Shown here one piece after another: positions 24,039 through 43,199 of a stretch of DNA of 64,000 nucleotides (position 1 is its first letter; the number at the start of each line of letters is the position of its first letter). The stretch comes from Bacillota bacterium (GTDB taxonomy: Bacteria > Bacillota > Desulfotomaculia > Desulfotomaculales > Nap2-2B), in contig JBFMBG010000002.1 of the NCBI GenBank assembly GCA_040755215.1, positions 16,974-80,973 on the forward strand, in the 5' to 3' direction. The notes beneath the pieces are model-generated. The model was given only the letters and a program-made list of their open reading frames with translations. It made no database searches and was not told the DNA's origin. Position numbers and translations under genes: made by a program.

Positions 24039-24119
24039 TCGCTCACCTCCCCGTATTCTGACCTAATCGCTGCAGACTAAGTGAACCGTCGTCAAAAGGC
24101 GCATTACCTGGTCTGCAGT

Positions 24120-24341
24120 TCATTTACCGATAATCGTGATCACCAGGCGGCCGTCCGGGATGTCCTTGGCAACCAGGTCAAACACCCGGCCCGATTTGGC
24201 CAGAAAGCCGCGAAAACGGGTGGCCGTCGGGATCCGCCCCGGAATGCTGCCGGCGGCGTTAACGATGTCCGCCACCGTTATTTTCTCCTGGCGCAGGTCG
24301 TTCAGCCTTTTGCGGGCGTGTTCGGTAATGATTACGCGCAT
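24120..24341 (-). CDS. small toxin-like protein (DUF4258/RelE-fold-like)
   Basis: 73 aa. ITEHARKRL...R near the N-terminus and LVITIIGK at the C-terminus resemble DUF4258 toxins. It abuts the upstream small ORF with no gap. Confidence 0.4.
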   Translation of the reverse strand: MRVIITEHARKRLNDLRQEKITVADIVNAAGSIPGRIPTATRFRGFLAKSGRVFDLVAKDIPDGRLVITIIGK

Positions 24342-24569
24342 TTACAAAAGGCCTCCGAGCGAAAACAGGTTGTCTGCTTCCTCCGCCAGGAAGGCGTAAA
24401 GGGCGTCCTGAAAAGCGTTAATGACCGGATCTTCCAGATTCGCCTGCCGGTAAATCTGCTCCAGTTCGTTTTTCAGCTCCTGGAATTCCTCGCTTAAACA
24501 AATGAGAGCGATTGACCGGACCCACTTTTTGATTTCCTCTTCCGAGGAATCGAACCTGGGCACCCCCAT
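24342..24569 (-). CDS. putative cognate antitoxin (unclassified, acidic helical)
   Basis: The ORF track extends to 24614. I prefer the ATG at 24569 because a -35/-10 pair sits at 24613-24641. The 75-aa ORF directly abuts the toxin-like gene. Confidence 0.35.
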   Translation of the reverse strand: MGVPRFDSSEEEIKKWVRSIALICLSEEFQELKNELEQIYRQANLEDPVINAFQDALYAFLAEEADNLFSLGGLL

Positions 24570-24612
24570 GCAGCGTCTCCTTTCCCGGGGCAGAGGGACT
24601 TTGACACCAACC

Positions 24613-24641
24613 ATTTTAGCATAATTAAAAAGAGAAGTAAA
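24613..24641 (-). promoter_or_regulatory. sigmaA-type promoter candidate for the TA-like pair
   Basis: The minus strand reads TTTACT-17 nt-TAAAAT, about 44 nt upstream of the ATG at 24569. Confidence 0.4.
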
Positions 24642-24938
24642 CTTGATTCTGTGCTACATGAGGGGTTTTCTTTAATATTGCGCCCTAATTAAAAGCATTC
24701 CCGCGTGCCATTTCAAGGGTCAGCTTAATCAATAAGAAGACCTCCTGGTACAGAAAGATAAGGACAAAACTAAAATGTACCGGATGTCGTTGTCTTTACT
24801 CATAATTTTCCTTTACTTTCGTTTATTAGTTACACCGGTCCCCCTCCGGCAACGGGCAAACGGAGTTTTATTCTCATGTGCTACACCTTGCTGCACGCGG
24901 AGCTATTATTTCCCAATTCAAAAGAGCATATTTGGAAC

Positions 24939-24964
24939 ACCCGGATTCGGTTCCGGGTTTTTTT
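24939..24964 (+). terminator. orphan plus-strand rho-independent terminator
   Basis: ACCCGGA-ttcggt-TCCGGGT stem followed by a T7 run. No annotated plus-strand gene lies upstream. Confidence 0.6.
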
Positions 24965-25047
24965 ATTGAAGAAAGTTTGCCGGCAATGCATAATTGTATT
25001 AAAGTAATAACTTAATATTATAGGCAAATTAGTACTTTACGAAATTG

Positions 25048-25067
25048 GTAATACACTTATGTATTAC
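25048..25067. promoter_or_regulatory. palindromic upstream activator site candidate (ATAC-N6-GTAT core)
   Basis: GTAATACActtaTGTATTAC, an 8-bp perfect inverted repeat. The core at 25051-25064 lies 43 nt upstream of the -24 element at 25108. Confidence 0.55.
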
Positions 25068-25107
25068 TATGTGGAAAACAATTGCTAAAAAACAATTACT
25101 TTAAAAT

Positions 25108-25123
25108 TGGCATTATTTTTGCT
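25108..25123 (+). promoter_or_regulatory. sigma54 -24/-12 promoter (P1)
   Basis: TGGCATTATTTTTGCT has GG-N10-GC spacing and matches TGGCAC-N5-TTGCW. It is 28 nt upstream of the ATG at 25151, with a GAGGTGA SD in between. Confidence 0.7.
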
Positions 25124-25150
25124 ATTTGAATTTTTTGAGGTGAGTTAAAA

Positions 25151-26638
25151 ATGCCACCTTCGTCATTGATAAATTTTCTTGAATCGAAATTTGCCCGGTC
25201 AATCCCGAACATGCAGTTGCCGATTAGGCCTGATGAGCCCTCGAGAGGGCTTCCGGACGGAGCAACGGTGGTTATTGTCGGCGGCGGCCTGGCGGGCAGT
25301 TGCTTTGCCCGGCTCCTGTTAATGCTTTGCCACAAGGAAAATAGACGCATTAACATCTATTTGGTGAATAGCACAGGCTGTAATTATTGTGGGGGCTTGG
25401 TAACTAATATTGCCCAAGAGGCAATGGAGCGTTTATATAAGCTAAACATAACAGACAATCTAGTGCTGGAAAAAATAAACTCCTTTGTTTATGTTAACAG
25501 AGAAGGTCATGTAAAAATTGAGCTGCCAACTCCGATTACCGCTACCTTGCGAACTAGTCGCTTTGGGGTAACTGGTTTTGACGATTCGATTAAGCATAGA
25601 ATACTTGAAGGAATGGAAGATTATACAAAAACATCCACCTTTACGCGCATCGAACCCACTATCGTCAAAAATATTATTCCGCCCGACGGCAAATCCAAAA
25701 AATGGCGGGTGGTTTTAAGCCGCCGCCGGCCGAACGGGTCTCCGGACGAATTATCAGCCGACCTGGTTGTCTTGGCAGCGGGATTTAATTCTTTGGACAA
25801 ACCAATGATCAACCGTTATATGCAAAGTACCGGATTTAAACCTCCGCCTGTACTCCGCGCTTGCGTTACGGAGATAGATACTTCTACTGCCAGATATAAC
25901 CGCGTAGGCCAACATGTATATATGATCGACGGAATCGTCCCGGGTTCTATTCTGGCTTTTATTCCCAAAGGTAAAAATTGGTTAACCTTGACTTCCTTGA
26001 ACAAAGTGCTGAGCTTTGAAGATCTGGAAACTTTATTTAACCATCCAGTTGTGAAGGAAATTATTGACTTGCCCAACCCGGCAGAATGCTTGCGCTGCCA
26101 TGTAATTTGCCCGTCTTTTGTTTTTACCGGTCCATCGCGGCATTTTTACGGTGATGGTTGGGTAGCCGTAGGCGATTTAGCAGGATACGGCCGGGTTTTA
26201 AAAGACGGTTACTTTGCAGCCTTTGTTGGTGCATGGTACGCGGTTCACACAGTTTTTTACCACGGGACCTCCCGCGCTCACTTTGAGCGCCACTATCATG
26301 GCCCCTTGCGCCGGTTTAATCGAGAAAACCTCCTTGGAATTAAGCTTTTCAACTTTAATATGTTTATTGGTCGGCAAAAATGGTTCAATCGTTTGCTTCT
26401 GGCCGCAGCAAAGGAGGAGCGGCAAAAAAACCCTTACGGTTGGGCTATCCACGCTGCTTTTCGGAGCCTCCAGACTGGTCTTTTACCCTATCTGCTTATA
26501 TGCTTACTTTTTGTGGTAGGTGTTTTTCGTTACGTCCTACGTCACCCTTTTCAAGCATGGAGAATTTTTTTTGCAGAGACAGGGAAAACCGCGGCAAAAG
26601 CAAAAAAATCCTTATCGGCTGCACGAAAGATTATTTAA
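25151..26638 (+). CDS. FAD-dependent oxidoreductase with C-terminal membrane helix (function unknown)
   Basis: 495 aa. VVIVGGGLAGSCFARLL dinucleotide-binding motif, GDGWVAVGDLAGY (GD motif), CNYCGG Cys pair, hydrophobic LLPYLLICLLFVVGVF near the C-terminus. The gene is visibly AT-richer than its surroundings. Confidence 0.55.
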   Translation: MPPSSLINFLESKFARSIPNMQLPIRPDEPSRGLPDGATVVIVGGGLAGSCFARLLLMLCHKENRRINIYLVNSTGCNYCGGLVTNIAQEAMERLYKLNITDNLVLEKINSFVYVNREGHVKIELPTPITATLRTSRFGVTGFDDSIKHRILEGMEDYTKTSTFTRIEPTIVKNIIPPDGKSKKWRVVLSRRRPNGSPDELSADLVVLAAGFNSLDKPMINRYMQSTGFKPPPVLRACVTEIDTSTARYNRVGQHVYMIDGIVPGSILAFIPKGKNWLTLTSLNKVLSFEDLETLFNHPVVKEIIDLPNPAECLRCHVICPSFVFTGPSRHFYGDGWVAVGDLAGYGRVLKDGYFAAFVGAWYAVHTVFYHGTSRAHFERHYHGPLRRFNRENLLGIKLFNFNMFIGRQKWFNRLLLAAAKEERQKNPYGWAIHAAFRSLQTGLLPYLLICLLFVVGVFRYVLRHPFQAWRIFFAETGKTAAKAKKSLSAARKII

Positions 26639-26710
26639 AACCTGAATCCGTGATACCATCTCACCAATAACCATTTTCAGGCATAAGATTCAGGTAAAGC
26701 TTTCGGGAGC

Positions 26711-28303
26711 TTACTCCGGAGGAACAATCAGAGCCAGGGCGAAAACAAATAAGAAAACTACAATCAAAAAGAGATTCAGGCCAAGTAATCCGAACTGAAA
26801 AAGCCAGGTGAACCCGGCGAGGACGGTAAGCATGCAAAGAAACGCGCCAGCCAGGGCGCTCAGGGCAACCACCTTTCTCCACGGGGAAAGGTTTCTCGCC
26901 GGTTGCCATTGATCGGCCCTTTCCACCAAAGTCACCGCCACCAGGGTAACAATATTCATGGACATTCCGAAAAATACCGGGTGAATGTGCAGGTAAAAAT
27001 TCGCCGGGTCCCAGCGGCCCAGGGAATACCACGTCAATCCGCCTAGAAAACCGGTAACCATCGCCGCCACCGCCGCCCGGCGGGTGGCCAGCGGCCAGAA
27101 CAGGGTGGCCACCACGGGGGCAAAGGTGGCGCCGTTCCGCAGCGTCCAGGCCAGCACGTTCCACCAGGCTGCCTGCTCGCTCCGGAGAAGGGCAAGGACG
27201 ATGACCATGGCGGTCAGCAACACCAGGGACCACCTGGTGTAGGCAACTTTTTGCGCGTCGGCCAGACCCGGTTTCACCGCTTCCGCAAAATCCCTGCCCA
27301 GGCTGGTGGAACCGGAGAACTGGCAGGGCGCCCCCCAACCCAGGGCACAGGCCCAGACGCCCATAAAAAACAATCCCACCAGGGGAGGGGGGAGAACCCG
27401 ACCCAGGTAAACCGGGACGCCGACCATCCCGCCCCGGTAACCGGGCGCTGCCGCAGCCGCCGCCAGGCCAAATAAAATGCCCAGGGAAATAAAAATTGCA
27501 TCGGCGGCAAAAGCCATCAATAAACCCCTGCGCCCCTCCTCCGGAGTCCGGCAGGACAGGGCCATCTGAAAGGCCGCCTGCGCCGCCAGCACGTTAATCA
27601 AAAAGGTGGCAAACCAGGCAATAATCAATTGCAATCCTACGCCGTCCAGGCTAAACATCTCCGGCCGGGTCCTGGCCAGGTGCGCCAGTCCGGCAGGGCC
27701 GGACCCGACGAAAAAGGCGTAGATTCCTACGCCGAACATCAGGACAAACGCAACGTTGTTGGCCGTCTGGGTGGCAACCACCGACCACATCCCCCCGACC
27801 TCAAGAAAAATCAACAAAAGCAAGGCGCTGATGGTTACCGTTACGGGCAGCGAGAAATCGGTAAAAACATCCAGGGCGACGGCGAAGGAAAGGGTATTGG
27901 CAACCGTCCACATGGGGAAGGTCAAGCCGGTAATTGCTCCGGCCACCCCTAAGGCGAGCCTGCCGAAGCGGTCACCGATCAGGCCCGAGATAGTGATCAT
28001 CAGGCGGCGGCGCAGGTTGCCGATCAGCAAAAGAGCAATAATCAGCACGTGCACCATCTCGGCCACCCCGTACCAGCCAGCGGAGATCCCTTTTGCATAG
28101 GATAGTTCAAGAATAGAAATGTAGGAAGAACCGGAAAAAAGACCGGTGGTACAGACAAAAACCATCCAGGCCCGAAAAGATCTCCCACCCACCCAAAATC
28201 CTTCCCCGTCCCGGGCCCTGCTTTTCACAATGTTGCCGAGGATAATCAGGACGGCTGTATAAAATACGGCCATTCCCAGTATCCATGCTCCGCAGGGATT
28301 CAT
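26711..28303 (-). CDS. sodium:solute symporter (SSS) family transporter
   Basis: 530-aa polytopic ORF. The N-terminal GEGFWVGGRSF motif and overall pattern are typical of the SSS family. Confidence 0.7.
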   Translation of the reverse strand: MNPCGAWILGMAVFYTAVLIILGNIVKSRARDGEGFWVGGRSFRAWMVFVCTTGLFSGSSYISILELSYAKGISAGWYGVAEMVHVLIIALLLIGNLRRRLMITISGLIGDRFGRLALGVAGAITGLTFPMWTVANTLSFAVALDVFTDFSLPVTVTISALLLLIFLEVGGMWSVVATQTANNVAFVLMFGVGIYAFFVGSGPAGLAHLARTRPEMFSLDGVGLQLIIAWFATFLINVLAAQAAFQMALSCRTPEEGRRGLLMAFAADAIFISLGILFGLAAAAAAPGYRGGMVGVPVYLGRVLPPPLVGLFFMGVWACALGWGAPCQFSGSTSLGRDFAEAVKPGLADAQKVAYTRWSLVLLTAMVIVLALLRSEQAAWWNVLAWTLRNGATFAPVVATLFWPLATRRAAVAAMVTGFLGGLTWYSLGRWDPANFYLHIHPVFFGMSMNIVTLVAVTLVERADQWQPARNLSPWRKVVALSALAGAFLCMLTVLAGFTWLFQFGLLGLNLFLIVVFLFVFALALIVPPE

Positions 28304-28389
28304 TTTTTTAACCTCCCTTCGGAGGGATCAACAATGGACTGTAAGGTTACCTGTCTTTCTCGAGCCCGTACCGGAATACCCCCGCTCTC

Positions 28390-29571
28390 CTAAACGAGAA
28401 AAAGAACCACAAAGTAAATAATCATCAAGGCCATTCCAAAGGGCACCCCCAGGCAGGCCCATTCCCGGCTGCCGATTTTCAGCTTGCTGGCGGAAACGAT
28501 ATTGGGAATGTTGCCGGGGATGAGCATCCCCCCGCTGATTAATAGCCCCATCAGGATGGCCTGGATTTGCTGGGAAGTCATTTTCGCGCTGATTTCCGCC
28601 GCCGCCAGGGTGGCGTTGTCTAAAACGGCAGAAATCATGTTTACCCAGTAAAGCAGGCGGCTGTCGAAGTAGATTACATAGGTATCGATGACCGGTTTAA
28701 AACCGGCGCCGAGCAGTTCTAAGGCCATCACAAAGACGAAAATTTTTACCGCCCGGATCACCACCCCCTGGTAAGATTCCTTTTCCACTGTTTCCTCCGC
28801 TTCTTTTACGGCGGCTCTTTCTGCGGTTGCCGCCACTGGACTGGCGAACGCCCCGCCCTGCCAAGCCGGGTCCTGATCCCTCCCTTCGTTTCTCCCGGCA
28901 ACCCTGGTAACGGTAGGGAGACTTTCCACCTGCTCCGGCGCCTTAATCACAACGTCCCCTTTCGCCGGACGCCCACGCGCTACGTAATAAGCCCCAAACA
29001 GGCCGGTGGCCAGCACGCCGGGAATAATAAACCAGCCTACCTCCCCCAGGAGGTACCAGAAGCCGGCGTTCAGCTTAGAAACGGTGATGGTGGAAAGGGG
29101 TTCCCCGATGGGCGTAAGCGCGGCCCCCAAACCAATTGAAAAACAGGCGATTATGTCCAGATTCACTTTGTCCTTGCGGGAAAGCGGCAGAACGCTGATT
29201 ATTTCCACCAGCACCAAAGAGGCGATGATGGCGGTGATGACACTAGAGAACAAACCCAGGGTAACCGTAATGAAAAAGATAAAAACTTTCAGAGGGACAT
29301 ATTTCAGGATGGCCGCAACGGCCCCCTGCACTTTTTCTTTCCAGATTTTAAACAAAAGGCCGGCAATGAGAACGGCGCCGGTAATCATATACATAAAATG
29401 GTTTTCCAAAATTTCGATGAGCAGTTCTTTCCCCAAAACGCCGGAGACGATGGTCGCCGCCAGGCCCATGATGAAAAGAAAAGGCTCCAGGTTGTGCTCA
29501 ACCTGCTTTAAAAGAAAGGGGAGGGTCAAAACCAGGAGCAAGATAATTAACAAACCAATAACCATTTTCAA
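28390..29571 (-). CDS. polytopic membrane protein, possibly DUF1646-type cation transporter
   Basis: 393 aa with many TM helices. The N-terminus LPFLLKQVEHNLEPFLFIMG resembles DUF1646, from memory only. A hydrophilic central loop is present. Confidence 0.4.
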   Translation of the reverse strand: MKMVIGLLIILLLVLTLPFLLKQVEHNLEPFLFIMGLAATIVSGVLGKELLIEILENHFMYMITGAVLIAGLLFKIWKEKVQGAVAAILKYVPLKVFIFFITVTLGLFSSVITAIIASLVLVEIISVLPLSRKDKVNLDIIACFSIGLGAALTPIGEPLSTITVSKLNAGFWYLLGEVGWFIIPGVLATGLFGAYYVARGRPAKGDVVIKAPEQVESLPTVTRVAGRNEGRDQDPAWQGGAFASPVAATAERAAVKEAEETVEKESYQGVVIRAVKIFVFVMALELLGAGFKPVIDTYVIYFDSRLLYWVNMISAVLDNATLAAAEISAKMTSQQIQAILMGLLISGGMLIPGNIPNIVSASKLKIGSREWACLGVPFGMALMIIYFVVLFLV

Positions 29572-29623
29572 GTCCTCCTGTAAATAGATTGAAACTGAGG
29601 GTGGGAAAGTTAAATCACCCTTT

Positions 29624-29653
29624 CAAAAAAATTATCCACGCCGGGTGGATAAT
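29624..29653 (-). terminator. rho-independent terminator after the anion permease gene
   Basis: 9-bp stem ATTATCCAC/GTGGATAAT with a 5-nt loop. On the minus strand it is followed by T7, 42 nt after the stop at 29695. Confidence 0.7.
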
Positions 29654-29694
29654 TTTTGCCTAACCCAATAAATTTTTATCTCTCTCGGAGAGCA

Positions 29695-31209
29695 TTATAA
29701 ATTCTGCCAGAATTGGAGATTAAAGTGCAACACAGTCCCCCAGAACAGCCACGATACAAGCCCGCACGCAAGAGCACAGAAAAAGCCGTAGAGAGGCAAG
29801 CGCCAGGAGGCCTTCCCTTCCAGAGCGATCGGAAGGGCCATCGTTCCTGTAGCTGCCGGAACCATGAAAGAAAAGTTTACTGTATATCCCATCATGAGCA
29901 GCCACGGAATTGGGTTTACCCCGGCAGCTTTTGTCGCCGCTCCCACTATCGGGGCCAGCATTCCGGCGGCACCGGTATCCGAAGCAATATTACCCATGAA
30001 TAGACAAAAGGCGACAAATATGCCCGTCCCCGTGTAAGCCGGCAAATTCCAGTATGTCCCCAGGAACTGTGCCATTAACTTGCCGGCACCCGTCATGGTA
30101 ACGAGGGCTGCAATGCTCATCGCTGTGGGCCAAAGGAGAAAGGCATGAATGGGAAAGACCTTAACGGCATTAATGCTCAGGAGTCTTTCGCCCGGCTCGT
30201 ATTCAAACGGCTTGCCTTTCGGAGCCCCTGCGTCCGGAGCAGGCAGCAAAGCGAGGATACCTGTTACAACCGCGAAAATTAAGGAAGGGCTGATGTTTAC
30301 TCCTTTAGGCAGGTAAGGCCTCCATAACGGCTCTAAAAAGGGCATGGCTACGGCCAACAGGAAAATGATAAAGCCCCACTTCTCCGAACCTGTGATCGGG
30401 CCCATCTTTTTTAGTTCTTCTTCGAAGTATTCGTGAGATCCTTCAAAATGCTTGCGATCGATCGGAAAAACGGCGGCAAATAAAATGGCCACGGGGATCA
30501 TGCTCAGAAAAACGGGAAGCACCAGTGTAGCTGTGTAACTGGCCATGGCAACAGGCCTCCCGAGAGTGTCAACCAGTTGCTGCCAGGTTATGACGGCCTG
30601 GCCGCCGGCCATCGGAGTCAAGAAGCCACCCAGGGAAGCACCAATAGCTACAGCAATAATGATGAGCATCGCACTTGCGCTGTTTTTCAATTTCTGACTG
30701 GAATCATAACCCACGTACTTGAGAATTTCGAGGGCAATCGGGGTAAGGGCAATGGCGATGACAGTATTTGCCGCTATAAAACTGATTATTGTAGAAAACA
30801 TTACCCAGACAACGGCCTGCGCCCTGACGGAAGTACCGACCCACTTCAGGCAGAACAACGCCATCCGGCGGGTCAGGCCCCACCTCGTCCACATGCAGAC
30901 GATCAGGGCCGGACCCAGTAACATCCCGAGACCCGGGTGAATAACTGTCTTGGTTATCTGTCCCCAATCCATGCCGGGAAGGAAAGCGGTTCCCAAAAGC
31001 GGAATGAAGATCGTATACCCTGTCGGTATTATCCCTGTCGCCCAGTACCAGGCACACCAGACAATAATTGCTAGCCCGCCCCGGGCAGTAACGCTTCCGA
31101 TAGGCAGCGCGAATAGAATAATGAAGTACAAAATGGGGCCGACCGCCAGGGTGATCCATTCCAGAACGGTTTTATCAAACCCCAAGATCCTTACCGTCTT
31201 TGTTCCCAA
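29695..31209 (-). CDS. ion-transporter superfamily anion permease (SLC13/DASS-like; sulfate or dicarboxylate)
   Basis: 504-aa polytopic ORF. SLGGFLTPMAGG resembles the DASS/ArsB-NhaD hairpin motif. The sulfur-gene context is noted, but the substrate is unproven. Confidence 0.55.
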   Translation of the reverse strand: MGTKTVRILGFDKTVLEWITLAVGPILYFIILFALPIGSVTARGGLAIIVWCAWYWATGIIPTGYTIFIPLLGTAFLPGMDWGQITKTVIHPGLGMLLGPALIVCMWTRWGLTRRMALFCLKWVGTSVRAQAVVWVMFSTIISFIAANTVIAIALTPIALEILKYVGYDSSQKLKNSASAMLIIIAVAIGASLGGFLTPMAGGQAVITWQQLVDTLGRPVAMASYTATLVLPVFLSMIPVAILFAAVFPIDRKHFEGSHEYFEEELKKMGPITGSEKWGFIIFLLAVAMPFLEPLWRPYLPKGVNISPSLIFAVVTGILALLPAPDAGAPKGKPFEYEPGERLLSINAVKVFPIHAFLLWPTAMSIAALVTMTGAGKLMAQFLGTYWNLPAYTGTGIFVAFCLFMGNIASDTGAAGMLAPIVGAATKAAGVNPIPWLLMMGYTVNFSFMVPAATGTMALPIALEGKASWRLPLYGFFCALACGLVSWLFWGTVLHFNLQFWQNL

Positions 31210-36162: not shown

Positions 36163-36173
36163 TTCGCCACCTC

Positions 36174-37436
36174 CTAAAACTTCATTTCCGGCAAGGTAAA
36201 CACAGGATTTCTATCCTGCAGGTATTTATCCGTCACGAAGGCCGAGCCGAAACCGTATTTCTCGGCACATTCCATAATCAGGTCGAACACTTCGGGTCTG
36301 AAGATCAGGCGAGGTGGCTTCACACCATCCTGGATGATGCTCCTGATCAGCGTGCCGCTGAAGTTCTGGCTCTGCGCTTTATGGCCGCACAACCCCGAAT
36401 AGGTGACTTCGGCACAAACGGGGCAGTACCACCAGGCCAGCACCCGCACCGGTTTAATCCGCAGGTCGCTTTCCGGAATCTGGTCGAAGATCCGGTGCGC
36501 ATCGTAAGGATCGTAGTACGTGCCCACGCCGGCGTGGTCCCGGCCGAACATGTGGTGCGTAAGGCCCAGATTCGTCCTCAAGATGGCGTGGAAAACGGCT
36601 TCCTTCGGCCCGGCGTAGCGCATATCCCAGAGGGTGATGGAGGTGAGGTGGACGTCCTCCCGGAAATAGCCCGCTTTGCGCAGCACGTCGTGGCACAGGA
36701 CGATGGCTTCGTCGATGTAGTCGCCCTTTCTCTTTTCGCCGATAATGGCGTTGACGAGCACGCCCGTAACCGTTTTTTCCACCGGCAGCTCGCCGTGGGC
36801 CTGCAGCCAGGAACCCTTCATCAGCCACTCGTGCCCGGTATGCGGGACGTTTCTGGTCTGGTGGGCGACAATCCGCTGCCAGCCTTTTTCGGCGAATTTT
36901 TGCCGGAGCTGTTTAGGGGTGAAGAAGAATTCGTCAAACGGAGGGTTGATTTTGGGCGGATTAACCAGGGTGACCTTCCCGCCGAGGAACTTATCCTTGT
37001 ACTTGTACGTCCTGGCCACTCCCGGGTGCTTTTCTTCCGTGGTGCCGTAAACTTTCTGGGCCATTTCCTGTTTGTCGTAGGTAAAGATTTCCTCGACTTC
37101 CAGAATGGCCATCGGCTTGTCCTGGTAGGTTAAGAGGACCTTGTCCCCTTCTTTAATTCCCTTTTCGTTGATTTCCTGATCCGACAGATCGAAAACGATC
37201 GGGATGGGCCAGAGGACGCCGTTGGCAAGGCGCATCTCCTTACAGACCCGGCCCACGTCTGCTCTGGTCATAAAACCTTCCAGGGGGGTAAAAAACCCGT
37301 ACGCAATATCGATAATTTCTCTGGCGATCTGGCCGCGGATGGGCACCGGCGTAAGTCCTTTGATTGCCCGGGCCGCCTCTTCCGGCGCCATTACTCTTTC
37401 GACAAGCTCTTTGCCGCCATGGCCGATATTACTCAT
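36174..37436 (-). CDS. sat: sulfate adenylyltransferase (ATP sulfurylase, homo-oligomeric type)
   Basis: 420 aa with QTRNVPHTGHEWL (QxRNxxHxxH) and FGRDHAGVG motifs. GGAAGGAG SD upstream. Confidence 0.9.
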   Translation of the reverse strand: MSNIGHGGKELVERVMAPEEAARAIKGLTPVPIRGQIAREIIDIAYGFFTPLEGFMTRADVGRVCKEMRLANGVLWPIPIVFDLSDQEINEKGIKEGDKVLLTYQDKPMAILEVEEIFTYDKQEMAQKVYGTTEEKHPGVARTYKYKDKFLGGKVTLVNPPKINPPFDEFFFTPKQLRQKFAEKGWQRIVAHQTRNVPHTGHEWLMKGSWLQAHGELPVEKTVTGVLVNAIIGEKRKGDYIDEAIVLCHDVLRKAGYFREDVHLTSITLWDMRYAGPKEAVFHAILRTNLGLTHHMFGRDHAGVGTYYDPYDAHRIFDQIPESDLRIKPVRVLAWWYCPVCAEVTYSGLCGHKAQSQNFSGTLIRSIIQDGVKPPRLIFRPEVFDLIMECAEKYGFGSAFVTDKYLQDRNPVFTLPEMKF

Positions 37437-37477
37437 CTCACTTCTCCTTCCCTTTCAAAATGTGCTTTTGGGGCGAA

Positions 37478-37696
37478 TCAACCGTTCGCTTCGTGCCTGA
37501 TTTTGCTTTGTTTTTTACATCCATAATCTTTTGGAGACAGCCTGTCCTGGACAGATTCATTGTCCCCTTGGGAAGAAGTTCTTTCTTTTTTCGAATTGTT
37601 TCTAAGAAGGACTTCTGCCCTATACATTTCTGCCCTAAAGAAAGGCTCTTCCAGCGCTTTCAAAAACCACGCGTGAATTTTTTTAGCGGAAACCAT
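37478..37696 (-). CDS. hypothetical 72-aa basic protein (start inferred)
   Basis: Internal ATG of ORF 37478..37747, preceded by AAGGAGA at 7-nt spacing. It fills the gap between the exported-protein gene and sat. No family recognised. Confidence 0.3.
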   Translation of the reverse strand: MVSAKKIHAWFLKALEEPFFRAEMYRAEVLLRNNSKKERTSSQGDNESVQDRLSPKDYGCKKQSKIRHEANG

Positions 37697-37716
37697 ACCA
37701 ACATCTCCTTGATAAC

Positions 37717-38532
37717 TTATTCTCTTTTTATACCTGGCAACCGGCAAATTAGCTTCTCAAAAAAGCGAAACAGGAGATCGATGAGCAAGCCGGCCAGCAA
37801 GGCAATAAAAACAGCGTAAGTACCGTATAAAGGACCATTTGTTTTCGCCATTTTGCGTATCCAGCCGGCAACCCCCGTCGGCTGGATAATCAGCGGGCTC
37901 TCGCTTTGGCCGATCACGCGGCCGTCCCTGATGGCGTAAGCGGTTATGGTCGTCTCCCCGTACGCCGCTTCCGCGGGTATTCTAATCAACGCCGAAAAGC
38001 TCTGCCCTCCTTTTTCTTCTTTTGTGAACAGGGATTTTTCCTGAACAACGTACAGGCCTTTTTTCTTATACAGGCCAACCAAAGCATCAACGTATTCTTT
38101 ACCCTCCCGGGCCGGCAAATCTTTGGTTTTTCCTCCGGTTGCAACGATAACCGTGGCCCGGTCGTGAACGGCGGCAAAATTGCCGTCCAGGCCCGTGTCT
38201 TTCCGAAGCGAAGGCGGCAACCGGTCAATTTCCGCCGAAGTGTAGATTTGATACATTTTAGGCACATTTACCACTTCCGCCTGCGCTACATTCATCCACA
38301 AAAAGCCGACTTTCCCTTTTTTATTTAACCTCTCTTTCCTCCCCGGCGATACCATCTTCAGATAAATGTCGCACTGCGCAGGAGCAGTGCCCGAAATATT
38401 AACGACAGCTCCTTTAAAACCCAGCCCCACCGCAATTACTCCGGGGTCGGGAGCCACGCGAATCTCCTGGGCAAAAGCAGCCGGCACGCCCGCCCCGAAG
38501 ATAAGACAAAATACGAGCAGCCCAACCTTCAA
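37717..38532 (-). CDS. exported protein with C-terminal membrane anchor, translationally coupled to tauE
   Basis: The ORF track runs to 38931 through tauE in another frame. I trimmed to the TTG at 38532, which overlaps the tauE stop and has GGGGGGAGG upstream. This yields signal peptide LKVGLLVFCLIFGAGVPAAFA and a C-terminal TM helix YAVFIALLAGLLIDLLF. Confidence 0.5.
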   Translation of the reverse strand: MKVGLLVFCLIFGAGVPAAFAQEIRVAPDPGVIAVGLGFKGAVVNISGTAPAQCDIYLKMVSPGRKERLNKKGKVGFLWMNVAQAEVVNVPKMYQIYTSAEIDRLPPSLRKDTGLDGNFAAVHDRATVIVATGGKTKDLPAREGKEYVDALVGLYKKKGLYVVQEKSLFTKEEKGGQSFSALIRIPAEAAYGETTITAYAIRDGRVIGQSESPLIIQPTGVAGWIRKMAKTNGPLYGTYAVFIALLAGLLIDLLFRFFEKLICRLPGIKRE

Positions 38533-39437
38533 TGGCCTCCCCCCAAAACGATCAGTGATGCGGGGGCTGCGAGTAAATTGTGAAGCATCTTGACCATTAC
38601 GCCGAGAACGATGACCGAAAAAAAGATGCGCAGCTGTTCTCCTTTCAAAAGGCGACCGAGGCGCGCCCCCACCTGGGCTCCGACCGCCGAGCCGAGGAGC
38701 AAAAGGAGAGCCAGCATAACGTCGACGGTTTCGTTGATAATCGCCTGGGCAAGAGTTACGTTTACAGCGGTAAAAATCACGGTGAAAAGACTGGTGCCTA
38801 CCGCCTTGTGCGTGGGAATTCCCAAAAGGTAGATCATTACCGGCAACATGATAAAACCGCCGCCAACGCCCATTAAAGCCGCCATGACGCCGATAAAAAA
38901 CCCGAGCGCAAATAAAACGATCACCGAACATTCAATTTTTGAAACAGGGAAGAAAAGCCTTCCCGGCAAAGATTTGGCCAGGTAGAACGGCCTGCCGGCC
39001 AAAGAGTCGGCGCTTCCTTTCCCCCGCAAGGCACGCAAGCTCTCCGCAAACATAAACGCTCCTACAAACAAAAGCATAACCACATATACCAGCGTTACGA
39101 TCAAATCAAAATTGCCCAACTGGCGCAATATCTTTACTCCTGTTGCGCCCAGCGTTCCTCCCGTCAGTCCGCCGAGGAGCATGATATAGCCGAGCTTGAA
39201 ATCAACGTTGCCTGCACGGCCGTGGGCCAGCGTACCGGACACGGAAGCAGCAACAATCTGGTTGGTATCGCTGGCCGCCGCCACCGCCGGCGGAATACCG
39301 ATCATCATTAAAAGGGGGGTGAGCAAAAACCCCCCGCCGACTCCAAATAAGCCAGACAGCATTCCTACCACGCCCCCCAGGCTAAAAATTAAATAGGTTT
39401 TGATCTGCACGCCCGCCACAGGCAAAAATATTTCCAT
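38529..39437 (-). CDS. TauE/SafE-family sulfite/organosulfonate exporter
   Basis: 302 aa with duplicated 4-TM halves, each carrying the GVGGGF(L/I) motif typical of TauE/DUF81. Confidence 0.8.
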   Translation of the reverse strand: MEIFLPVAGVQIKTYLIFSLGGVVGMLSGLFGVGGGFLLTPLLMMIGIPPAVAAASDTNQIVAASVSGTLAHGRAGNVDFKLGYIMLLGGLTGGTLGATGVKILRQLGNFDLIVTLVYVVMLLFVGAFMFAESLRALRGKGSADSLAGRPFYLAKSLPGRLFFPVSKIECSVIVLFALGFFIGVMAALMGVGGGFIMLPVMIYLLGIPTHKAVGTSLFTVIFTAVNVTLAQAIINETVDVMLALLLLLGSAVGAQVGARLGRLLKGEQLRIFFSVIVLGVMVKMLHNLLAAPASLIVLGGGH

Positions 39438-39455
39438 TTTTTTCGACTCCCCACT

Positions 39456-39899
39456 TCATGAAGCACGCTGAATCAGTTTTCCAGCAGTTTTCTTCCCGGG
39501 TTTCGGCAAGTCAATTGCCTGGTGTTGAAGGGACAGCCTAAAAACGTAATGTTCTACCAGCAGATTATAACTTTCCATGGCCAGACCCAGGACCAGCAAA
39601 AGCAAGAGCATCACTCCGTAGGGGAAAAGCTGGACATCCCGGTTATTTTTGTCGTAGAGCTTCCCGGAAACATCCGCCCAGGTGTAAATTTCCATGGTAT
39701 CCGGGTCTTGCTCCACGATGATATGGCGAGAAGGGTTAAAGTAATTTTTAAACAGACTTTCCCGCAAGCAATTAACCCCTGCCCAGAAAACCAGGAAAGC
39801 AAAAACGGCTACAGCCACAGCGACAAGTTTCGATAACGTCTTTAATTTTTTCTTTTCGTCCTGATTCAGGCTGAGGATGATTTGGTCCATGACACCCAC
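39456..39899 (-). CDS. hypothetical two-TM membrane protein
   Basis: 147 aa with two hydrophobic helices (LVAVAVAVFAFLVFWAGV, VMLLLLLVLGLAM); sits directly upstream of tauE. Confidence 0.45.
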   Translation of the reverse strand: MGVMDQIILSLNQDEKKKLKTLSKLVAVAVAVFAFLVFWAGVNCLRESLFKNYFNPSRHIIVEQDPDTMEIYTWADVSGKLYDKNNRDVQLFPYGVMLLLLLVLGLAMESYNLLVEHYVFRLSLQHQAIDLPKPGKKTAGKLIQRAS

Positions 39900-39978
39900 T
39901 CCTTTTACTTCTGTTTATTATTATTTTCATAAGTTATAATTTTCGCAAAAATCAATTTAATATAGATTAAAAGGTTTT

Positions 39979-40605
39979 TTATTTGACTCCCAATCTATTT
40001 AAAGTGTTTTTGGTGATCAAGATAAAGTTGGCGAGTTTCAAAGAGACAGAAGCGATCTCACGCCGCTCTACGACCGCAAAAGGCAAAAACAATTTAAAGC
40101 GGTATTTTCCGGTAGCTTCTACCGAAGGCAATTCACGTTCGATGACTTCGCCCAGCTCCCTTTCCATCTCTTTTTTTAAATTTAACAGGGGCAAGAAAAC
40201 CTGCCTTTTCTGGCCGTCCATGACGAGATCAATAAATAAAAGGTTTTCACCCTGAGGAACCCTTTTTCGGGGTCGGGTCCTCCCAATGCGGTAGTATATG
40301 TTTTGATTCTCAAAAACCCGGATGCATTTCCACGATTCCTTAAAGCCCATCCGCCGGTTGGGAAAAGTGTAGAGGATTTTCACCCCTAAACCGCCAAGCA
40401 AGCGTTCAGCATGGCTCAATACGCTATTCAAAAAACCATCGAAATCCCCCTGGCGGGGCGACTCTTCTTCGCCTTTCGCCCTTTCTTCCGCCAGCCAGCT
40501 CTTAAAACGACGAAACAGCTTCCAGTAGACCGACCCTTCTTTGTCTTTCTCCGAAAGCATCCCGCTGTGTTTTCCGTAACTTCCGGCAAGCTCCTGATTA
40601 GTCAC
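39979..40605 (-). CDS. hypothetical 208-aa protein, first gene behind sigma54 promoter P3
   Basis: GTG start after a GGGGGAAGGA purine tract. No family recognised. Confidence 0.45.
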   Translation of the reverse strand: MTNQELAGSYGKHSGMLSEKDKEGSVYWKLFRRFKSWLAEERAKGEEESPRQGDFDGFLNSVLSHAERLLGGLGVKILYTFPNRRMGFKESWKCIRVFENQNIYYRIGRTRPRKRVPQGENLLFIDLVMDGQKRQVFLPLLNLKKEMERELGEVIERELPSVEATGKYRFKLFLPFAVVERREIASVSLKLANFILITKNTLNRLGVK

Positions 40606-40664
40606 TTTCCTTCCCCCTGGAAAAAAGCAAAGCAGAAAGGCTTATGTTCGTTAAATTAAAACTA

Positions 40665-40680
40665 TGCAAAAAGCATGCCA
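40665..40680 (-). promoter_or_regulatory. sigma54 -24/-12 promoter (P3)
   Basis: The minus strand reads TGGCATGCTTTTTGCA (GG-N10-GC), 60 nt upstream of the start at 40605. Confidence 0.7.
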
Positions 40681-40722
40681 CAATGAAAGACCCGGAATTT
40701 CCCGGTTTTTGGGCAAGATTTA

Positions 40723-40736
40723 ATACAATAATGTAT
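40723..40736. promoter_or_regulatory. palindromic upstream activator site candidate
   Basis: ATACaataatGTAT, 42 nt upstream of the TGG of P3. Confidence 0.5.
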
Positions 40737-40787
40737 CAATAACTGCTATTTTCTCCTTATTTGACAGCAAAAATCAAAAAAAGGGGT

Positions 40788-40802
40788 GATACATAAATGT
40801 AT
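40788..40802. promoter_or_regulatory. palindromic upstream activator site candidate
   Basis: GATACataaatGTAT, in the P3/P4 divergent region. Confidence 0.45.
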
Positions 40803-40973
40803 TGGGCCAGCAAATAACCGCATCATTACCTTGCCATTCCGGCCAAGGCATTTAAAATTTCCTCCGGTTGCGTATGGAAATTAACGATACAGAAAAAATA
40901 TAGACGATGCATTTTTTTATTGAGCTTTCTTCGGCTTGTCTCCAGGCATAGTAAAGATTGTGCCAAAAAGCAC

Positions 40974-40991
40974 GATACCTTTCTGTATCGG
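40974..40991. promoter_or_regulatory. palindromic upstream activator site candidate
   Basis: CGATACctttctGTATCG, a perfect 6-bp inverted repeat. The core lies 41 nt upstream of the TGG of P4. Confidence 0.55.
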
Positions 40992-41030
40992 TCATTTAAA
41001 AAAATAAAGGATTATTCTTGCCTTTTCCCC

Positions 41031-41046
41031 TGGTACATTTCTTGCA
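41031..41046 (+). promoter_or_regulatory. sigma54 -24/-12 promoter (P4)
   Basis: TGGTACATTTCTTGCA (GG-N10-GC), 47 nt upstream of the TTG at 41093, with an AAGGAGG SD at 41077-41083. Confidence 0.65.
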
Positions 41047-41092
41047 AAAACGGATTTAAAGTGAAAAATAGCACATAAGGAGGTAATTTTCA

Positions 41093-41287
41093 TTGGGTGG
41101 TATTATCGGGCTGATCGGCGGCTACGGGGCAGTTTTGCTTTGTCTTGCGATCATAGTGCTGATGGACAATGTTTACCATAACATGTGGGCGGCGGGAATT
41201 GTCGGCTCCCTCGCCAGTCTCTTGGTGTGGGGAATCACGATGTGGATTATTTTCTCATCGGCGAAAAAGAAGGAAAAAACTTTATAA
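41093..41287 (+). CDS. 64-aa two-TM micro-membrane protein
   Basis: TTG start 9 nt after AAGGAGG. Two hydrophobic helices and a KKKEKTL tail. It has its own sigma54 promoter and terminator. Confidence 0.5.
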   Translation: MGGIIGLIGGYGAVLLCLAIIVLMDNVYHNMWAAGIVGSLASLLVWGITMWIIFSSAKKKEKTL

Positions 41288-41305
41288 TAACTTACCTTAT
41301 GGAAT

Positions 41306-41399
41306 CAATAGAGTAAGCAATCTGCCCTCCTCGGGACATATCGAGGGAAAAAACGAAACCGGCAAAAACAGCTTGCTTACTCTATTGTTCTTTTTGTTT
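41306..41399 (+). terminator. long stem-loop terminator after the 64-aa gene
   Basis: Perfect 15-bp arms CAATAGAGTAAGCAA (41306-41320) and TTGCTTACTCTATTG (41373-41387), followed by TTCTTTTTGTTT. The right arm overlaps the 3' end of the convergent activator gene. Confidence 0.55.
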
Positions 41400-43169
41400 A
41401 AGTTCTTCCGTTTTGATCCCGTATTTATGTGCCTTGCGCACCACGGTCGGCTGGGTGATCCCCAGGGCGCGCGCTGCCTTATGTGTGCTTCCGTATTCTT
41501 TCAGTGCCTGCAGAATAAGCTCTTTTTCAAAATGTTCAACGGCTTTTTTAAAGGATTTCGGCTTCTCATTTTTTTGCATTCCGGAATCTAAATGCTCCAG
41601 CTCAATCTGCTCACCAGGAGTCATTACAACCATTCTTTCGATCAGGTTTTCAAGTTCGCGAACGTTTCCCGGCCAATCGTAAGCAAGCAATCCTTTAATA
41701 AAATCCGCAGAAAATCTCTTCGTTAAATTGTATTTTTGATTAAATTGCCTCAGAAAATGAAAAGCCAGCGGAATAATGTCTTCCCTTCTTTCCCTGAGCG
41801 GCGGGACATATAGGGGTATGATATTGATCCGGTAAAACAGATCTTTGCGAAATCTGTTTTCGGCCACCATTTTCGCGAGGTCGCGATTGGTCGCTGCAAT
41901 GATGCGCACGTCCAGTTTGATGGGGTTTGTTCCCCCAACGCGCATAATCTGGCGATCCTGCAAGGCATGCAGGAGCTTGGGCTGAAGTTCTAAAGGCATC
42001 TCACCGATCTCGTCCAAAAAAAGAGTCCCCTTATTGGCAAGTTCAAACATACCCATTTTGCCGCGTTTTCGCGCCCCGGTAAAAGAACCCTCCTCAAAAC
42101 CAAACAGTTCCGATTCTAAGAGGGTTGAAGGAATGCCGCTGCAATTAATCTTGATAAAAGGGCCTTTCTGGCGGGAGCTTAAGTCATGGATCAGCCGGGC
42201 AAGCACTTCTTTCCCTACTCCCGTTTCCCCGAGAATTAAAACGGTTGATTCCGATCTTGCCGCAAGCTGGATCTTATTGATCAATTTCCGCATACATTCG
42301 CTGCGAACGATCAAGGAACCGCTATCGCTATTTATCTCTTGAATCAGTCGCAATTCTTTTTGGTAATGATCAGCAATATTGCGCGTTTTTTCCAGCTCCT
42401 TCCGCAAGATGTCCAGCTCAGTTATATCGCGGACATTCGAAACAATCCGCCATATCTTCCCATCGCCTGTAAATATTGGGACGCCTGTCACCAGGGCTTT
42501 CTGACCCGTACTTGTTTCGTAAATAATTGTACTTGGTTTCTTGGTGGCGAGAACGTGAATCGCGGCGGAATCCGAATAATACCCTTTATCGACAATCTCA
42601 TAAACAGTCTTTCCAATCACTTCCTCCCGCTTAATCCCGGAAAACTCTTCCCACGATTTGTTAACTCGCAAGGTAACCCCTTCTCCGTTCATCACCCAGA
42701 TACCATCGTGAGAATGCTCAAAGACGGCTTCCAGCTCGCGCACTTTTTCAAGCGCCAGCTCAAGTTCTGTTCCCAGTTCCTCCCCCAGCTTTTCCTTCGT
42801 TGTGATGTCTTGATACCAGGCGATCACCGAGACAACTTTTTGTTCACGAAAAACCGGCAAATAACAAGCTGAATAAATTTTTGGCCCCTTTATGAACAAT
42901 TCGCCTTTTACGGGAATACCATCAGCAAATACTTGTTTAATTAAAGAGAGCCGGTTTTCATTAAGAAAAGAATGGTTTTCAGCATCATTGGAAGAAGCCG
43001 CCTGCATAATTTCTCTGCCTAAAACATTGCACTCTATTATTTGGCAGTTTTCGTCTATAACCAAGATACCATCCTCTGGAGCATCAATTAATTTTAAAAT
43101 CGGATGTTCATTACCCCGCCTGCTCTTCACCTGTCCCCAGACTCCCCTCAAAAAGTGAGGCAACCGCAA
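41382..43169 (-). CDS. sigma54-dependent transcriptional activator (PAS-PAS-AAA+-HTH, Fis-type)
   Basis: 595 aa with two PAS-like segments. AAA+ core has GETGVGKE Walker A, the ESELFGFEEGSFTGA (GAFTGA-type) loop and LFLDEIGE Walker B. The C-terminal HTH reads AARALGITQPTVVRK. Confidence 0.9.
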   Translation of the reverse strand: MRLPHFLRGVWGQVKSRRGNEHPILKLIDAPEDGILVIDENCQIIECNVLGREIMQAASSNDAENHSFLNENRLSLIKQVFADGIPVKGELFIKGPKIYSACYLPVFREQKVVSVIAWYQDITTKEKLGEELGTELELALEKVRELEAVFEHSHDGIWVMNGEGVTLRVNKSWEEFSGIKREEVIGKTVYEIVDKGYYSDSAAIHVLATKKPSTIIYETSTGQKALVTGVPIFTGDGKIWRIVSNVRDITELDILRKELEKTRNIADHYQKELRLIQEINSDSGSLIVRSECMRKLINKIQLAARSESTVLILGETGVGKEVLARLIHDLSSRQKGPFIKINCSGIPSTLLESELFGFEEGSFTGARKRGKMGMFELANKGTLFLDEIGEMPLELQPKLLHALQDRQIMRVGGTNPIKLDVRIIAATNRDLAKMVAENRFRKDLFYRINIIPLYVPPLRERREDIIPLAFHFLRQFNQKYNLTKRFSADFIKGLLAYDWPGNVRELENLIERMVVMTPGEQIELEHLDSGMQKNEKPKSFKKAVEHFEKELILQALKEYGSTHKAARALGITQPTVVRKAHKYGIKTEELKQKEQ

Positions 43170-43199
43170 ATAAATATCTGCTCAGCAACCTGAAAGTAA

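Follow-up and report, generated by a model that had tools for sequence, protein, structure and literature searches.

The 64,000-nucleotide stretch analysed here (hereafter the window; Bacillota bacterium of the Desulfotomaculales, assembly GCA_040755215.1, contig JBFMBG010000002.1, positions 16,974–80,973, forward strand) holds a block of accessory genes between the housekeeping genes ribF and rpsO. Comparison with relatives reveals both the evolutionary history of this block and its promoter and operator architecture, and indicates that it is probably an old lineage-specific insertion at a hotspot, inherited vertically, eroding in sister lineages and organised as one sigma-54 regulon. The ribF and rpsO genes are normally adjacent, and the order truB-ribF(ribC)-rpsO-pnp is typical in Firmicutes. 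In the window, infB, rbfA, nrnA, truB and ribF, followed by rpsO, pnp and a peptidase M16 gene, all lie on the minus strand, with ribF (FAD synthetase/riboflavin kinase, 43200–44126; Pfam FAD_syn and Flavokinase) separated from rpsO (ribosomal protein S15, 23769–24038; Pfam Ribosomal_S15, E 4.6e-39) by 19.2 kb. A preliminary description of this DNA had placed ribF at 43200 and rpsO at 24038, 19 kb apart, and the coordinates and Pfam matches agree with it. Homology with relatives ends within about 10 nt past the ribF stop codon (window ~43192) and restarts just upstream of the promoter of a toxin-antitoxin (TA)-like pair (~24644). The accessory block proper, as delimited by the homology breakpoints with three relatives (L001, L002 and L003), extends from 24645 to 43191 (18,547 bp, 49.9% GC). 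The boundary at 24039 given in the preliminary description is displaced by these breakpoints, and the TA-like pair with its promoter (24120–24644), counted there as part of the island, does not belong to the block.

All the relatives compared are metagenome-assembled genome (MAG) or metagenome contigs, which carry the working labels L001–L027. A RibF-based scan with one genome per species yielded five close relatives. The second metagenome scan with RibF returned a single relevant contig of 1.9 kb that ends at ribF, no match was obtained in the metagenome scan with the activator of the block as query, and for neither the window Sat nor P0001 did an exact-sequence look-up lead to a recorded contig. 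In three outgroup lineages ribF stands next to rpsO, with or without a TA pair: rpsO directly follows ribF in L004 and L005 (RibF 70% identical to that of the window) and in L024–L026 (78%), and in L027 (73%) the order is ribF, TA pair, rpsO. In L002 (91%) ribF and the TA pair are followed by the contig end. In L001 (93%) a 4.2-kb cassette with genes for an FAD/NAD oxidoreductase, CooS (TIGR01702, 745 bits) and a CooF-like ferredoxin is placed at exactly the same breakpoints as the block, and on account of this different cargo the site behaves as a hotspot. The L001 MAG is labelled Armatimonadota and its truB-ribF-rpsO-pnp region shows 82–96% protein identity to the Bacillota window, which suggests that the contig is mislabelled or mis-binned.

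Two relatives hold the block or its remains. In L023 (GCA_020725585.1; RibF 79%) block genes follow ribF at the same site and in the same orientation and order as in the window, namely those for the activator, the small membrane protein, two uncharacterised proteins, TauE, the TIGR02186-like protein, a small ORF, both sulfatase-family enzymes and the PAPS_reduct-family protein; sat and the DUF6955 gene are missing, and the contig stops within the block, about 10 kb of which is visible. The closest relative, L003 (flanking proteins 96–98% and flanking DNA 97–99% identical to the window), has only ~740 bp between ribF and the TA promoter, made of five colinear pieces that correspond to window 43104–42602, 40634–40600, 40242–40317 (inverted), 27987–27940 and 24644 onward. 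The first piece is the 5' part of the activator gene (503 bp), its start excluded; the second and third are 35 bp from upstream of the gene for a 208-aa protein and 76 bp, inverted, from within that gene; the fourth (48–73 bp) comes from inside the sodium:solute symporter (SSF) gene and is followed by the TA promoter. This arrangement is interpreted as a deletion scar of the block. The block is found, in sum, at the full site in the window and L023 and as a scar in L003, and not in L001, L002, L024, L027 or L004/5. The synteny comparison proposed in the preliminary description thus points to a lineage-specific insertion: the outgroups have ribF and rpsO adjacent or separated by the TA pair only, and the genes are far from common to all relatives (L004, L005, L024–L026, L002 and L027 are without them).

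Between the window and L023 the DNA identity is 69–81% in the block and 77–83% in the flanks, and since the two ranges are alike the block appears to have diverged together with the chromosome. The proteins of the sulfatase module are 96% (sulfatase-family enzyme 2), 86% (sulfatase-family enzyme 1) and 92% (PAPS_reduct-family protein) identical, the module DNA 81%; such high protein identity at only 81% DNA identity speaks for purifying selection and not for recent transfer. The other block genes share 46–75% amino acid identity, and the flank proteins 69–84%. As L023 has the block at the same site and L003 its scar, the block would predate these lineages and be in the course of being lost, not gained. 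The phylogeny given by flank identity is ((window, L003), (L001, L002)), then L023, then L027, L024 and L004/5. Mosaic tracts interrupt it: ribF of L003 together with the truB-ribF spacer (L003 9328–10282, window 43192–44146) is ~75–88% identical in surroundings of 97–99%, with ribF itself 86% identical to that of the window and its neighbours 98%, and a 400-bp divergent tract in pnp (window 22632–23031) repeats the L003 pattern. Because such tracts occur in ribF, truB and pnp, homologous recombination appears to be frequent in this neighbourhood, through the truB-ribF and rpsO-pnp flanks, and probably brought about the gains, losses and replacements at the site. The block would have been inserted once, between ribF and the TA-like pair in the ribF-rpsO spacer, in an ancestor of Desulfotomaculum/Desulfofundulus-like Bacillota that form a clade of roughly genus rank. 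Vertical descent would have followed, with erosion or replacement by ordinary deletion and homologous recombination, without dedicated mobility machinery. The simplest history would comprise one gain in that ancestor, a loss in L003 (the scar), a loss in the common branch of L001 and L002, and a later gain of the carbon monoxide dehydrogenase (CODH) cassette in L001.

The same flank recombination could in principle have carried the block between diverged lineages (window/L003 and L023), with L001 and L002 never having had it. The mosaic tracts do fall exactly in the flanks (ribF of L003 and pnp at 22.6–23.0 kb), the L001 and L002 gaps contain no scars, and the sulfatase-family proteins (86–96%) are more alike than the flank proteins. 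Nevertheless, this course of events is unlikely, given that the sulfatase module DNA, at 81%, has diverged just as the flanks have and that the remaining block genes (46–75% amino acid identity) are as diverged as the flanks or more.

Base composition bears on whether this genome, or its immediate lineage, took up the block recently by horizontal transfer. The GC content of the block is 6.8 points below that of the rest of the window (56.7%), much of the deficit being supplied by four intergenic regions at 36–42% GC. The composition of the block is a mosaic: the genes from the SSF symporter to sat have a third-position GC content (GC3) of 0.60–0.73, within the backbone range of 0.54–0.80, and low values (0.45–0.55) are confined to the flavoprotein, activator and uncharacterised genes, with 0.45–0.48 for the first two. 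The backbone itself is heterogeneous in base composition. A check of GC content and codon usage, proposed in the preliminary description, hence gives a divided answer, as the block is indeed lower in GC but more than half of it has a backbone-like GC3. The low GC of the block, the low GC3 of its flavoprotein and activator genes, its absence from L001, L002, L024, L027 and L004/5 and the occurrence of its cargo modules in unrelated contexts, at times beside transposases (L015–L017), would all suit a recent arrival. Against it stand the block of L023, at the identical site with a DNA divergence equal to that of the flanks, the block remnants in L003, whose flank proteins are 98% identical, the backbone-like part of the GC3 and the lack of integrase, tRNA and flanking repeats described below. 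L023 and L003 already largely refute such an acquisition, which we regard as quite improbable. Of the alternatives offered in the preliminary description, a horizontally acquired or a lineage-specific insertion, the latter is retained, and a recent acquisition by this genome is contradicted by the co-divergence with L023 and by the L003 scar.

A mobile element (an integrative and conjugative element (ICE), a transposon or a prophage) decayed to the point of losing both its integrase and its ends would account for the hotspot behaviour and the alternative cargo in L001, for the adjacent TA-like pair, for a small holin-like protein (a weak Pfam match, below the gathering score) and for the related module of L015–L017 flanked by transposases. 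Every ORF of at least 60 aa that was accepted as a gene was scanned against families, and no integrase or recombinase was found among those of the block, nor any conjugation or phage gene. Genes for metabolism, transport and regulation account for the 85% of the block that is coding, so that an integrase gene would find no space. No tRNA or tmRNA was detected by ARAGORN in the 64-kb window, no repeat family has copies at both 24.6 and 43.2 kb, as attachment-site (att) direct repeats would, and terminal repeats are likewise missing from the 10 kb of the block visible in L023. The ORF scans, the ARAGORN run and the repeat search bear out the preliminary description, which had reported no integrase, tRNA or flanking direct repeats. 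Judged by these features, the block appears to lack the integrase, tRNA and att repeats of a classical mobile island and shares with such islands the sporadic distribution, base composition giving the divided answer described above; descent from a decayed element is very improbable. A chimeric contig joining unrelated DNA between ribF and rpsO is hardly credible, for although the source is apparently a MAG (the identical CysD-like protein is annotated 'MAG: Bacillota bacterium'), an independent assembly from Logan (L018) does not differ from the window anywhere from rpsO through the TA pair and the flavoprotein gene into SSF, L023 shares the ribF-activator junction, and the L003 scar joins both ends on one contig. 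On these points we rejected recent horizontal gene transfer, a remnant of a prophage or ICE, and a chimeric assembly.

We conclude that this old insertion constitutes one predicted sigma-54 regulon with its own activator. The last gene of the block, 30–70 nt behind ribF (41382–43169, minus strand), encodes a sigma-54 enhancer-binding protein with PAS, AAA+ and HTH domains (Pfam Sigma54_activat PF00158, E 9e-70), a GSFTGA loop at residue 361 and no receiver domain; its L023 ortholog occupies the same position and shares 75% identity with it. In the gap between ribF and this gene no terminator-like site was seen, so the activator is probably read through from ribF at a low constitutive level. 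The sigma-54 consensus was searched across the 64 kb with at most one mismatch and with two mismatches. With at most one mismatch five matches were obtained, all five inside the block and three of them just upstream of start codons. The promoter here called P2 is a two-mismatch match that retains GG-N10-GC, also just upstream of a start codon. Two-mismatch matches in the window are not above chance (14 vs 29 expected), so that only the placement, the quality and the L023 conservation of the sites carry weight.

The four promoters lie 43–157 nt upstream of start codons (box start to start codon). P1 (TGGCATTATTTTTGCT, 25108–25123, plus strand) precedes the flavoprotein start by 43 nt (box start to ATG) and is identical in L018. 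P2 (TGGTATGTTTTTTGCA, 35398–35413, minus strand) is found upstream of sulfatase-family gene 2 and has the L023 ortholog TGGCATGCTTTTTGCA. P3 (TGGCATGCTTTTTGCA, 40665–40680, minus strand), also with an ortholog in L023, stands before the gene for the 208-aa protein, and P4 (TGGTACATTTCTTGCA, 41031–41046, plus strand; L023 ortholog TGGCACGTTTTTTGCA) before that for a 64-aa membrane protein. With no more than one mismatch allowed, the 64 kb contain eight copies of a 14-bp palindrome, ATACA-N4-TGTAT, against 0.38 expected; shuffled sequence never gave more than two. All eight copies are placed in block spacers, upstream of the four promoters. Two belong to P1 (24986–24999 and 25051–25064, 109 and 44 nt upstream), three to P2 (35457–35470, 35527–35540 and 35547–35560), two to P3 (40723–40736 and 40789–40802) and one to P4 (40975–40988). 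The proximal palindrome ends ~44 nt before the −24 box at P1–P4 and the distal one ~110 nt before it at P1–P3. The L023 contig covers the orthologs of P2–P4 and does not reach P1. Those of P2 and P3 keep the same boxes, palindromes and spacing though the intergenic DNA barely aligns with the window; at that of P4 the −24/−12 box is kept and the palindromes are more distant. No such palindrome is present in 8 kb of L023 flanking genes. A regulator belonging to the island, as the preliminary description had supposed, is therefore matched by four sigma-54 promoters with a shared palindromic operator, an arrangement that L023 keeps at the three promoters covered. Palindrome-like matches upstream of the L011 sulfatase genes do not align with the operator region of the window and were not counted.

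The activator is predicted to bind the palindromes ~44 and ~110 nt upstream of the four −24/−12 promoters. P1 would then drive the gene of a membrane flavoprotein resembling geranylgeranyl reductases (GGR-like), and P4 that of the 64-aa membrane protein. From P2, transcription would cover the genes for the Cys-less PAPS-reductase-fold protein and both sulfatase-family enzymes of the Thr type and would probably continue into the DASS, DUF1646 and SSF transporter genes. From P3 it would cover two uncharacterised proteins, TauE, the TIGR02186-like protein, a small protein, Sat and the DUF6955 protein. A 19-nt inverted repeat (41306–41387) between the small membrane-protein and activator genes is a likely bidirectional terminator.

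The AT-rich non-coding patches listed in the preliminary description turn out to be low-GC spacers that serve as promoter and operator regions, except that the third (39.9–41.1 kb) is largely coding: it contains the conserved gene for the 208-aa protein (39979–40605) and, at its upper edge, the small membrane-protein gene, and only 40606–41092 is intergenic. An Rfam search across 20–47 kb with E up to 1 gave no match, which rules out a riboswitch or known S15 leader in these patches. Two further elements were seen in the spacers. At both P1 (25080–25102) and P2 (35421–35443) the −24 box is immediately preceded, in the same relative orientation, by 23 nt rich in A/T (AATTGCTAAAAAACAATTACTTT), which may be an IHF-type or extended promoter element. 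On the plus strand, a terminator-like hairpin (24939–24958) followed by T7 lies between the TA promoter and the P1 operators (24650–24960), with no convincing gene upstream of it, and could represent a small RNA or a gene remnant at the block edge.

The genes under P2 include the most conserved pair of the block (minus strand for all block genes except where plus is given). The sulfatase-family enzymes 1 (32610–33824; Pfam Sulfatase) and 2 (33910–35256) both carry Thr where the formylglycine would be, and in both a signal peptide is missing. In type I sulfatases the formylglycine motif is C/S-x-P/A-x-R (PMC12421950). Thr49 of enzyme 1 aligns with the Ser/Cys of SGPSR in 5g2v, the motif being replaced by YT(Q/G)A, invariant in 11 homologs, and Y48-T49 as well as the metal ligands D10, D246 and H247 are invariant. 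The Tyr-Thr in place of the motif and the missing signal peptide indicate that these are not canonical sulfatases. The PAPS-reductase-fold PP-loop protein (31728–32573; Pfam PAPS_reduct), here called CysD-like, has an intact, invariant PP-loop SGxKDS, many further invariant residues and no conserved catalytic Cys, no Cys being invariant among 45 homologs. The fold predicted for it (pLDDT 91) comes no closer to any one of FMN adenylyltransferase (FMNAT), APS/PAPS reductases (CysH; APS, adenosine 5'-phosphosulfate; PAPS, 3'-phosphoadenosine 5'-phosphosulfate) and CysD than to the others; all NCBIfam CysH models score far below their cutoffs, the CysD model gives 63 bits vs a cutoff of 195, and no CysN gene is found in the block or in six other contexts. 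These traits point to a nucleotide alpha-hydrolase and not to a reductase. The two proteins share a C-terminal motif, sulfatase-family enzyme 2 ending in ...EARLRALGYIVE (33910–33951) and the CysD-like protein in ...AMARLRALGYM (31728–31763), and the motif is kept in homologs of both, which hints at a common binding partner or mutual docking.

Homologs of the CysD-like protein number ~2,200, the best 120 of them being 61–100% identical, and in 7/7 contexts its gene is directly downstream of a 400-aa sulfatase-family gene, often together with genes for Sat, DUF6955, TauE, DASS or SSF, a second sulfatase-family enzyme and (aryl-)sulfotransferases. In one version the genes lie in the thrS–infC interval; another has transposases on its flanks. 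In L010 (JGI 3300013877), positions 8793–14052 hold genes for a sulfatase-like protein, a CysD-like protein, TauE, a 146-aa protein, Sat, DUF6955 and a GerE regulator; this module is just upstream of infC-rpmI-rplT, with thrS ~6 kb further up and several genes between. The search for island homologs suggested in the preliminary description was productive, since the cargo modules recur elsewhere, in the seven contexts of the pair and in a Desulfotomaculum copahuensis locus (L019, LYVF01000047; 21 kb seen). The latter resembles the other part of the block: beside a GGR-like flavoprotein that is 66% identical, it encodes TauE, Alph_Pro_TM, a sigma-54 regulator and a protein homologous to the 208-aa one. 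It differs in its site beside rpsB-tsf, in its regulator, which is a two-component response regulator, and in the lack of sulfatase-like, CysD-like or Sat genes in the 21 kb. The block appears to join these two recurrent modules under one activator.

The flavoprotein gene (25151–26638, plus strand) encodes a membrane-anchored FAD protein with a GGR-like fold (AlphaFold pLDDT 92), the best Foldseek matches being GGRs (E 3e-19, TM 0.54–0.59), and with a predicted C-terminal helical membrane anchor. Its CNYCGG motif is invariant (C80-G81-G82 invariant or nearly so), it scores 23 bits with TIGR02032 (cutoff 159), and its family comprises 48 members, all Clostridia.

The remaining cargo consists of transporters, Sat and small genes, and the family searches uphold the gene list of the preliminary description for the interval, adding a fourth transporter, TauE. 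The sodium:solute symporter (26711–28303; Pfam SSF) is followed by a DUF1646 membrane protein of the CitMHS-like ion-transporter superfamily (28390–29571; Pfam DUF1646, E 3e-130) and a DASS/Na-sulfate-symporter-family transporter (29695–31209; Pfam CitMHS and Na_sulph_symp, TIGR00785). Directly upstream of the DASS ribosome-binding site, two tandem 30-nt copies (31233–31291; AAAAGTGAAT[G/A]AT[A/T]GTACA... on the gene strand) may form an internal promoter or operator in the 518-nt spacer that separates this gene from the CysD-like one. This spacer folds no better than shuffled sequence (z = 0.17).

The DUF6955 protein (35872–36162; Pfam E 9e-34), whose gene in L010 and L014, too, occurs alongside those for Sat and the CysD-like protein, lies beside Sat, the sulfate adenylyltransferase (36174–37436; NF003166 514 bits vs a cutoff of 387, TIGR00339 381 vs 323). 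The best Protein Data Bank (PDB) match of Sat is the ATP sulfurylase of M. thermolithotrophicus (Methanothermococcus), and it is predicted to be a canonical, bona fide enzyme. Further along are a 72-aa ORF (MVSAKKIHAWFLKALEEPFFRAEMYRAE..., 37478–37696) with a 67-aa ortholog in L023 (80% DNA identity over 98 bp), an Alph_Pro_TM/TIGR02186-like exported membrane protein (37717–38532; Pfam E 1e-42) with a signal peptide and a TTG start that overlaps the TauE stop, the TauE/SafE (TSUP) anion permease (38529–39437; Pfam E 2e-48), a 147-aa protein (39456–39899) with no family match and 50% identity to the L023 ortholog, and the soluble 208-aa protein (39979–40605), the first gene after P3, 63% identical to that of L023 and 49% to that of D. 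copahuensis L019. The 64-aa membrane protein (41093–41287, plus strand), the one with the weak holin-like match, has a strong ribosome-binding site, AAGGAGG, and is 72% identical to the L023 ortholog.

Taken together, the role of the block is most likely the inducible uptake and ATP-dependent activation of sulfate or of a sulfated or sulfonated substrate. The transporters would import the substrate, Sat would make APS and the sulfatase-like/CysD-like pair would act further. A more specific proposal, which we put forward only tentatively, is that the Thr-nucleophile cytoplasmic sulfatase-family enzyme and the Cys-less PP-loop protein form the core of an uncharacterised, widespread sulfur-activation system. 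Candidate chemistries for the pair would be an APS-dependent, PAPS-independent sulfuryl transfer, or a formylglycine-independent sulfate-ester turnover feeding Sat. Such a system would usually be accompanied by Sat, DUF6955, TauE and anion symporters, and would here be under a dedicated sigma-54 switch with a new operator. Full-text literature searches returned nothing relevant on DUF6955, on TIGR02186/Alph_Pro_TM, on ribF-rpsO islands or on a cluster of sulfatase, PAPS-reductase and Sat genes.

Several observations weigh against this overall picture of an old, vertically inherited regulon for sulfur activation. On the historical side, the L023 contig ends inside the block, before the transporters, the flavoprotein and the TA pair; the gaps of L001, L002 and L027 show no block scars, and loss in these three is argued from parsimony and from a tree blurred by recombination. 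A residual doubt attaches to mis-assembly or mixed strains in the MAG and metagenome contigs, chiefly with respect to the L003 scar, and the backbone-like codon usage in part of the block gives no donor signal. As regards regulation, the flavoprotein gene of D. copahuensis has neither a palindrome nor a −24/−12 box upstream. As regards function, no APS kinase, APS reductase or sulfite reductase gene is found in the block, the sulfatase-family enzymes are without the defining formylglycine motif, and the GGR-like flavoprotein has no evident link to sulfur metabolism.

Chromosomal hotspots between core genes, where accessory genes reportedly turn over without mobility genes (a picture attributed to Oliveira et al. 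2017), offer the closest parallel for the site. Like them and like islets, the ribF-rpsO junction has fixed breakpoints, a cargo that varies with the lineage (sulfur block, CODH cassette or none), no integrase, tRNA or repeats, and recombination tracts in its flanks. Unlike typical hotspots, it holds an old, co-diverging cargo, a five-fragment scar in one lineage and a TA-like pair at one edge. The regulatory part follows the NtrC-family sigma-54 regulons in its PAS/AAA+ (GSFTGA)/HTH activator, its GG-N10-GC promoters and its upstream palindromes. PrdR of Clostridia is the closest named model, but with 443 bits, where the PrdR model demands 795, the activator is not PrdR; moreover, unlike with PrdR, the predicted targets are sulfur and transport genes in place of proline reductase, and the activator has no receiver domain. 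No published description of the operator ATACA-N4-TGTAT was found.

With sulfate activation pathways, in which Sat or CysDN is followed by an APS kinase or an APS/PAPS reductase, the block shares Sat, a PP-loop PAPS-reductase-fold protein, DASS and TauE; unlike them, it is without CysN, CysC, a CysH-type catalytic Cys, AprAB or sulfite reductase. Both sulfatase-family enzymes keep the metal ligands of the alkaline-phosphatase superfamily, D10, D246 and H247 matching D20, D311 and H312 of EfAS (PMC12421950). They also resemble the type I (S1) sulfatases and phosphonate monoester hydrolases of that superfamily in their Pfam Sulfatase and SGSH_C domains. They depart from type I sulfatases in the invariant Thr at the nucleophile position, the absence of a signal peptide and the absence of a maturase gene from the block.

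The TA-like pair beside rpsO, outside the block, consists of a toxin-like ORF of 73 aa (24120–24341, minus strand), with a weak DUF4258 match (16.7 bits vs a cutoff of 25), and an antitoxin-like ORF of 75 aa (24342–24569, minus strand), with no family match, whose stop abuts the start of the former. A sigma-70-like promoter (24613–24641, minus strand; TTTACT-17-TAAAAT with a TG extension) precedes them, and this promoter and the antitoxin-like start, ATGGGGGTGCC, are kept in L001–L003. PADLOC and PDB searches gave no credible match for the pair; of the traits of type II TA systems, only the two-gene organisation fits, DUF4258 being below its cutoff. The pair ends 81 bp upstream of the rpsO start codon, where ~86 bp of homology to the ancestral spacer is left. 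It occurs in L001, L002, L003 and L027, all without the full block, and because relatives without the block (L002 and L027) carry it, it is a separate insert and probably older than the block.

Other variation was noted nearby. A second variable segment (window 11272–20039), ~4 kb from the block, contains an allophanate-hydrolase-like carboxyltransferase, a livFGMH-J-type ABC transporter and an IclR regulator; it is kept in L003 and missing from L001, where the peptidase M16 gene and the homolog of window 11272 are direct neighbours, and in L027 a HepT/MNT toxin-antitoxin pair follows the peptidase gene in its place. Between pnp and the peptidase gene of L003, a stretch (L003 14559–14697) resembles the infB-rbfA spacer (window 46739–46886) over 140 nt at 75% identity and may be a repeated intergenic element.

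A single core-gene junction presents here all the stages of such a site (empty, TA-only, full block, block without sat, deletion scar and CODH cargo), and illustrates how an island may look 'foreign' and yet be of ancient date and vertical descent. As genome architecture this is an instructive and clear but fairly ordinary hotspot. The predicted regulon, with its activator, 14-bp operator and four promoters, is directly testable. The biochemical lead is the more interesting one: the most conserved genes of the block (96% protein identity at 81% DNA identity) belong to a large family pair without assigned function, the sulfatase-like/CysD-like pair, which travels with sulfate-activation and sulfotransferase genes in anaerobes, and whose chemistry could add a step to anaerobic sulfur metabolism.

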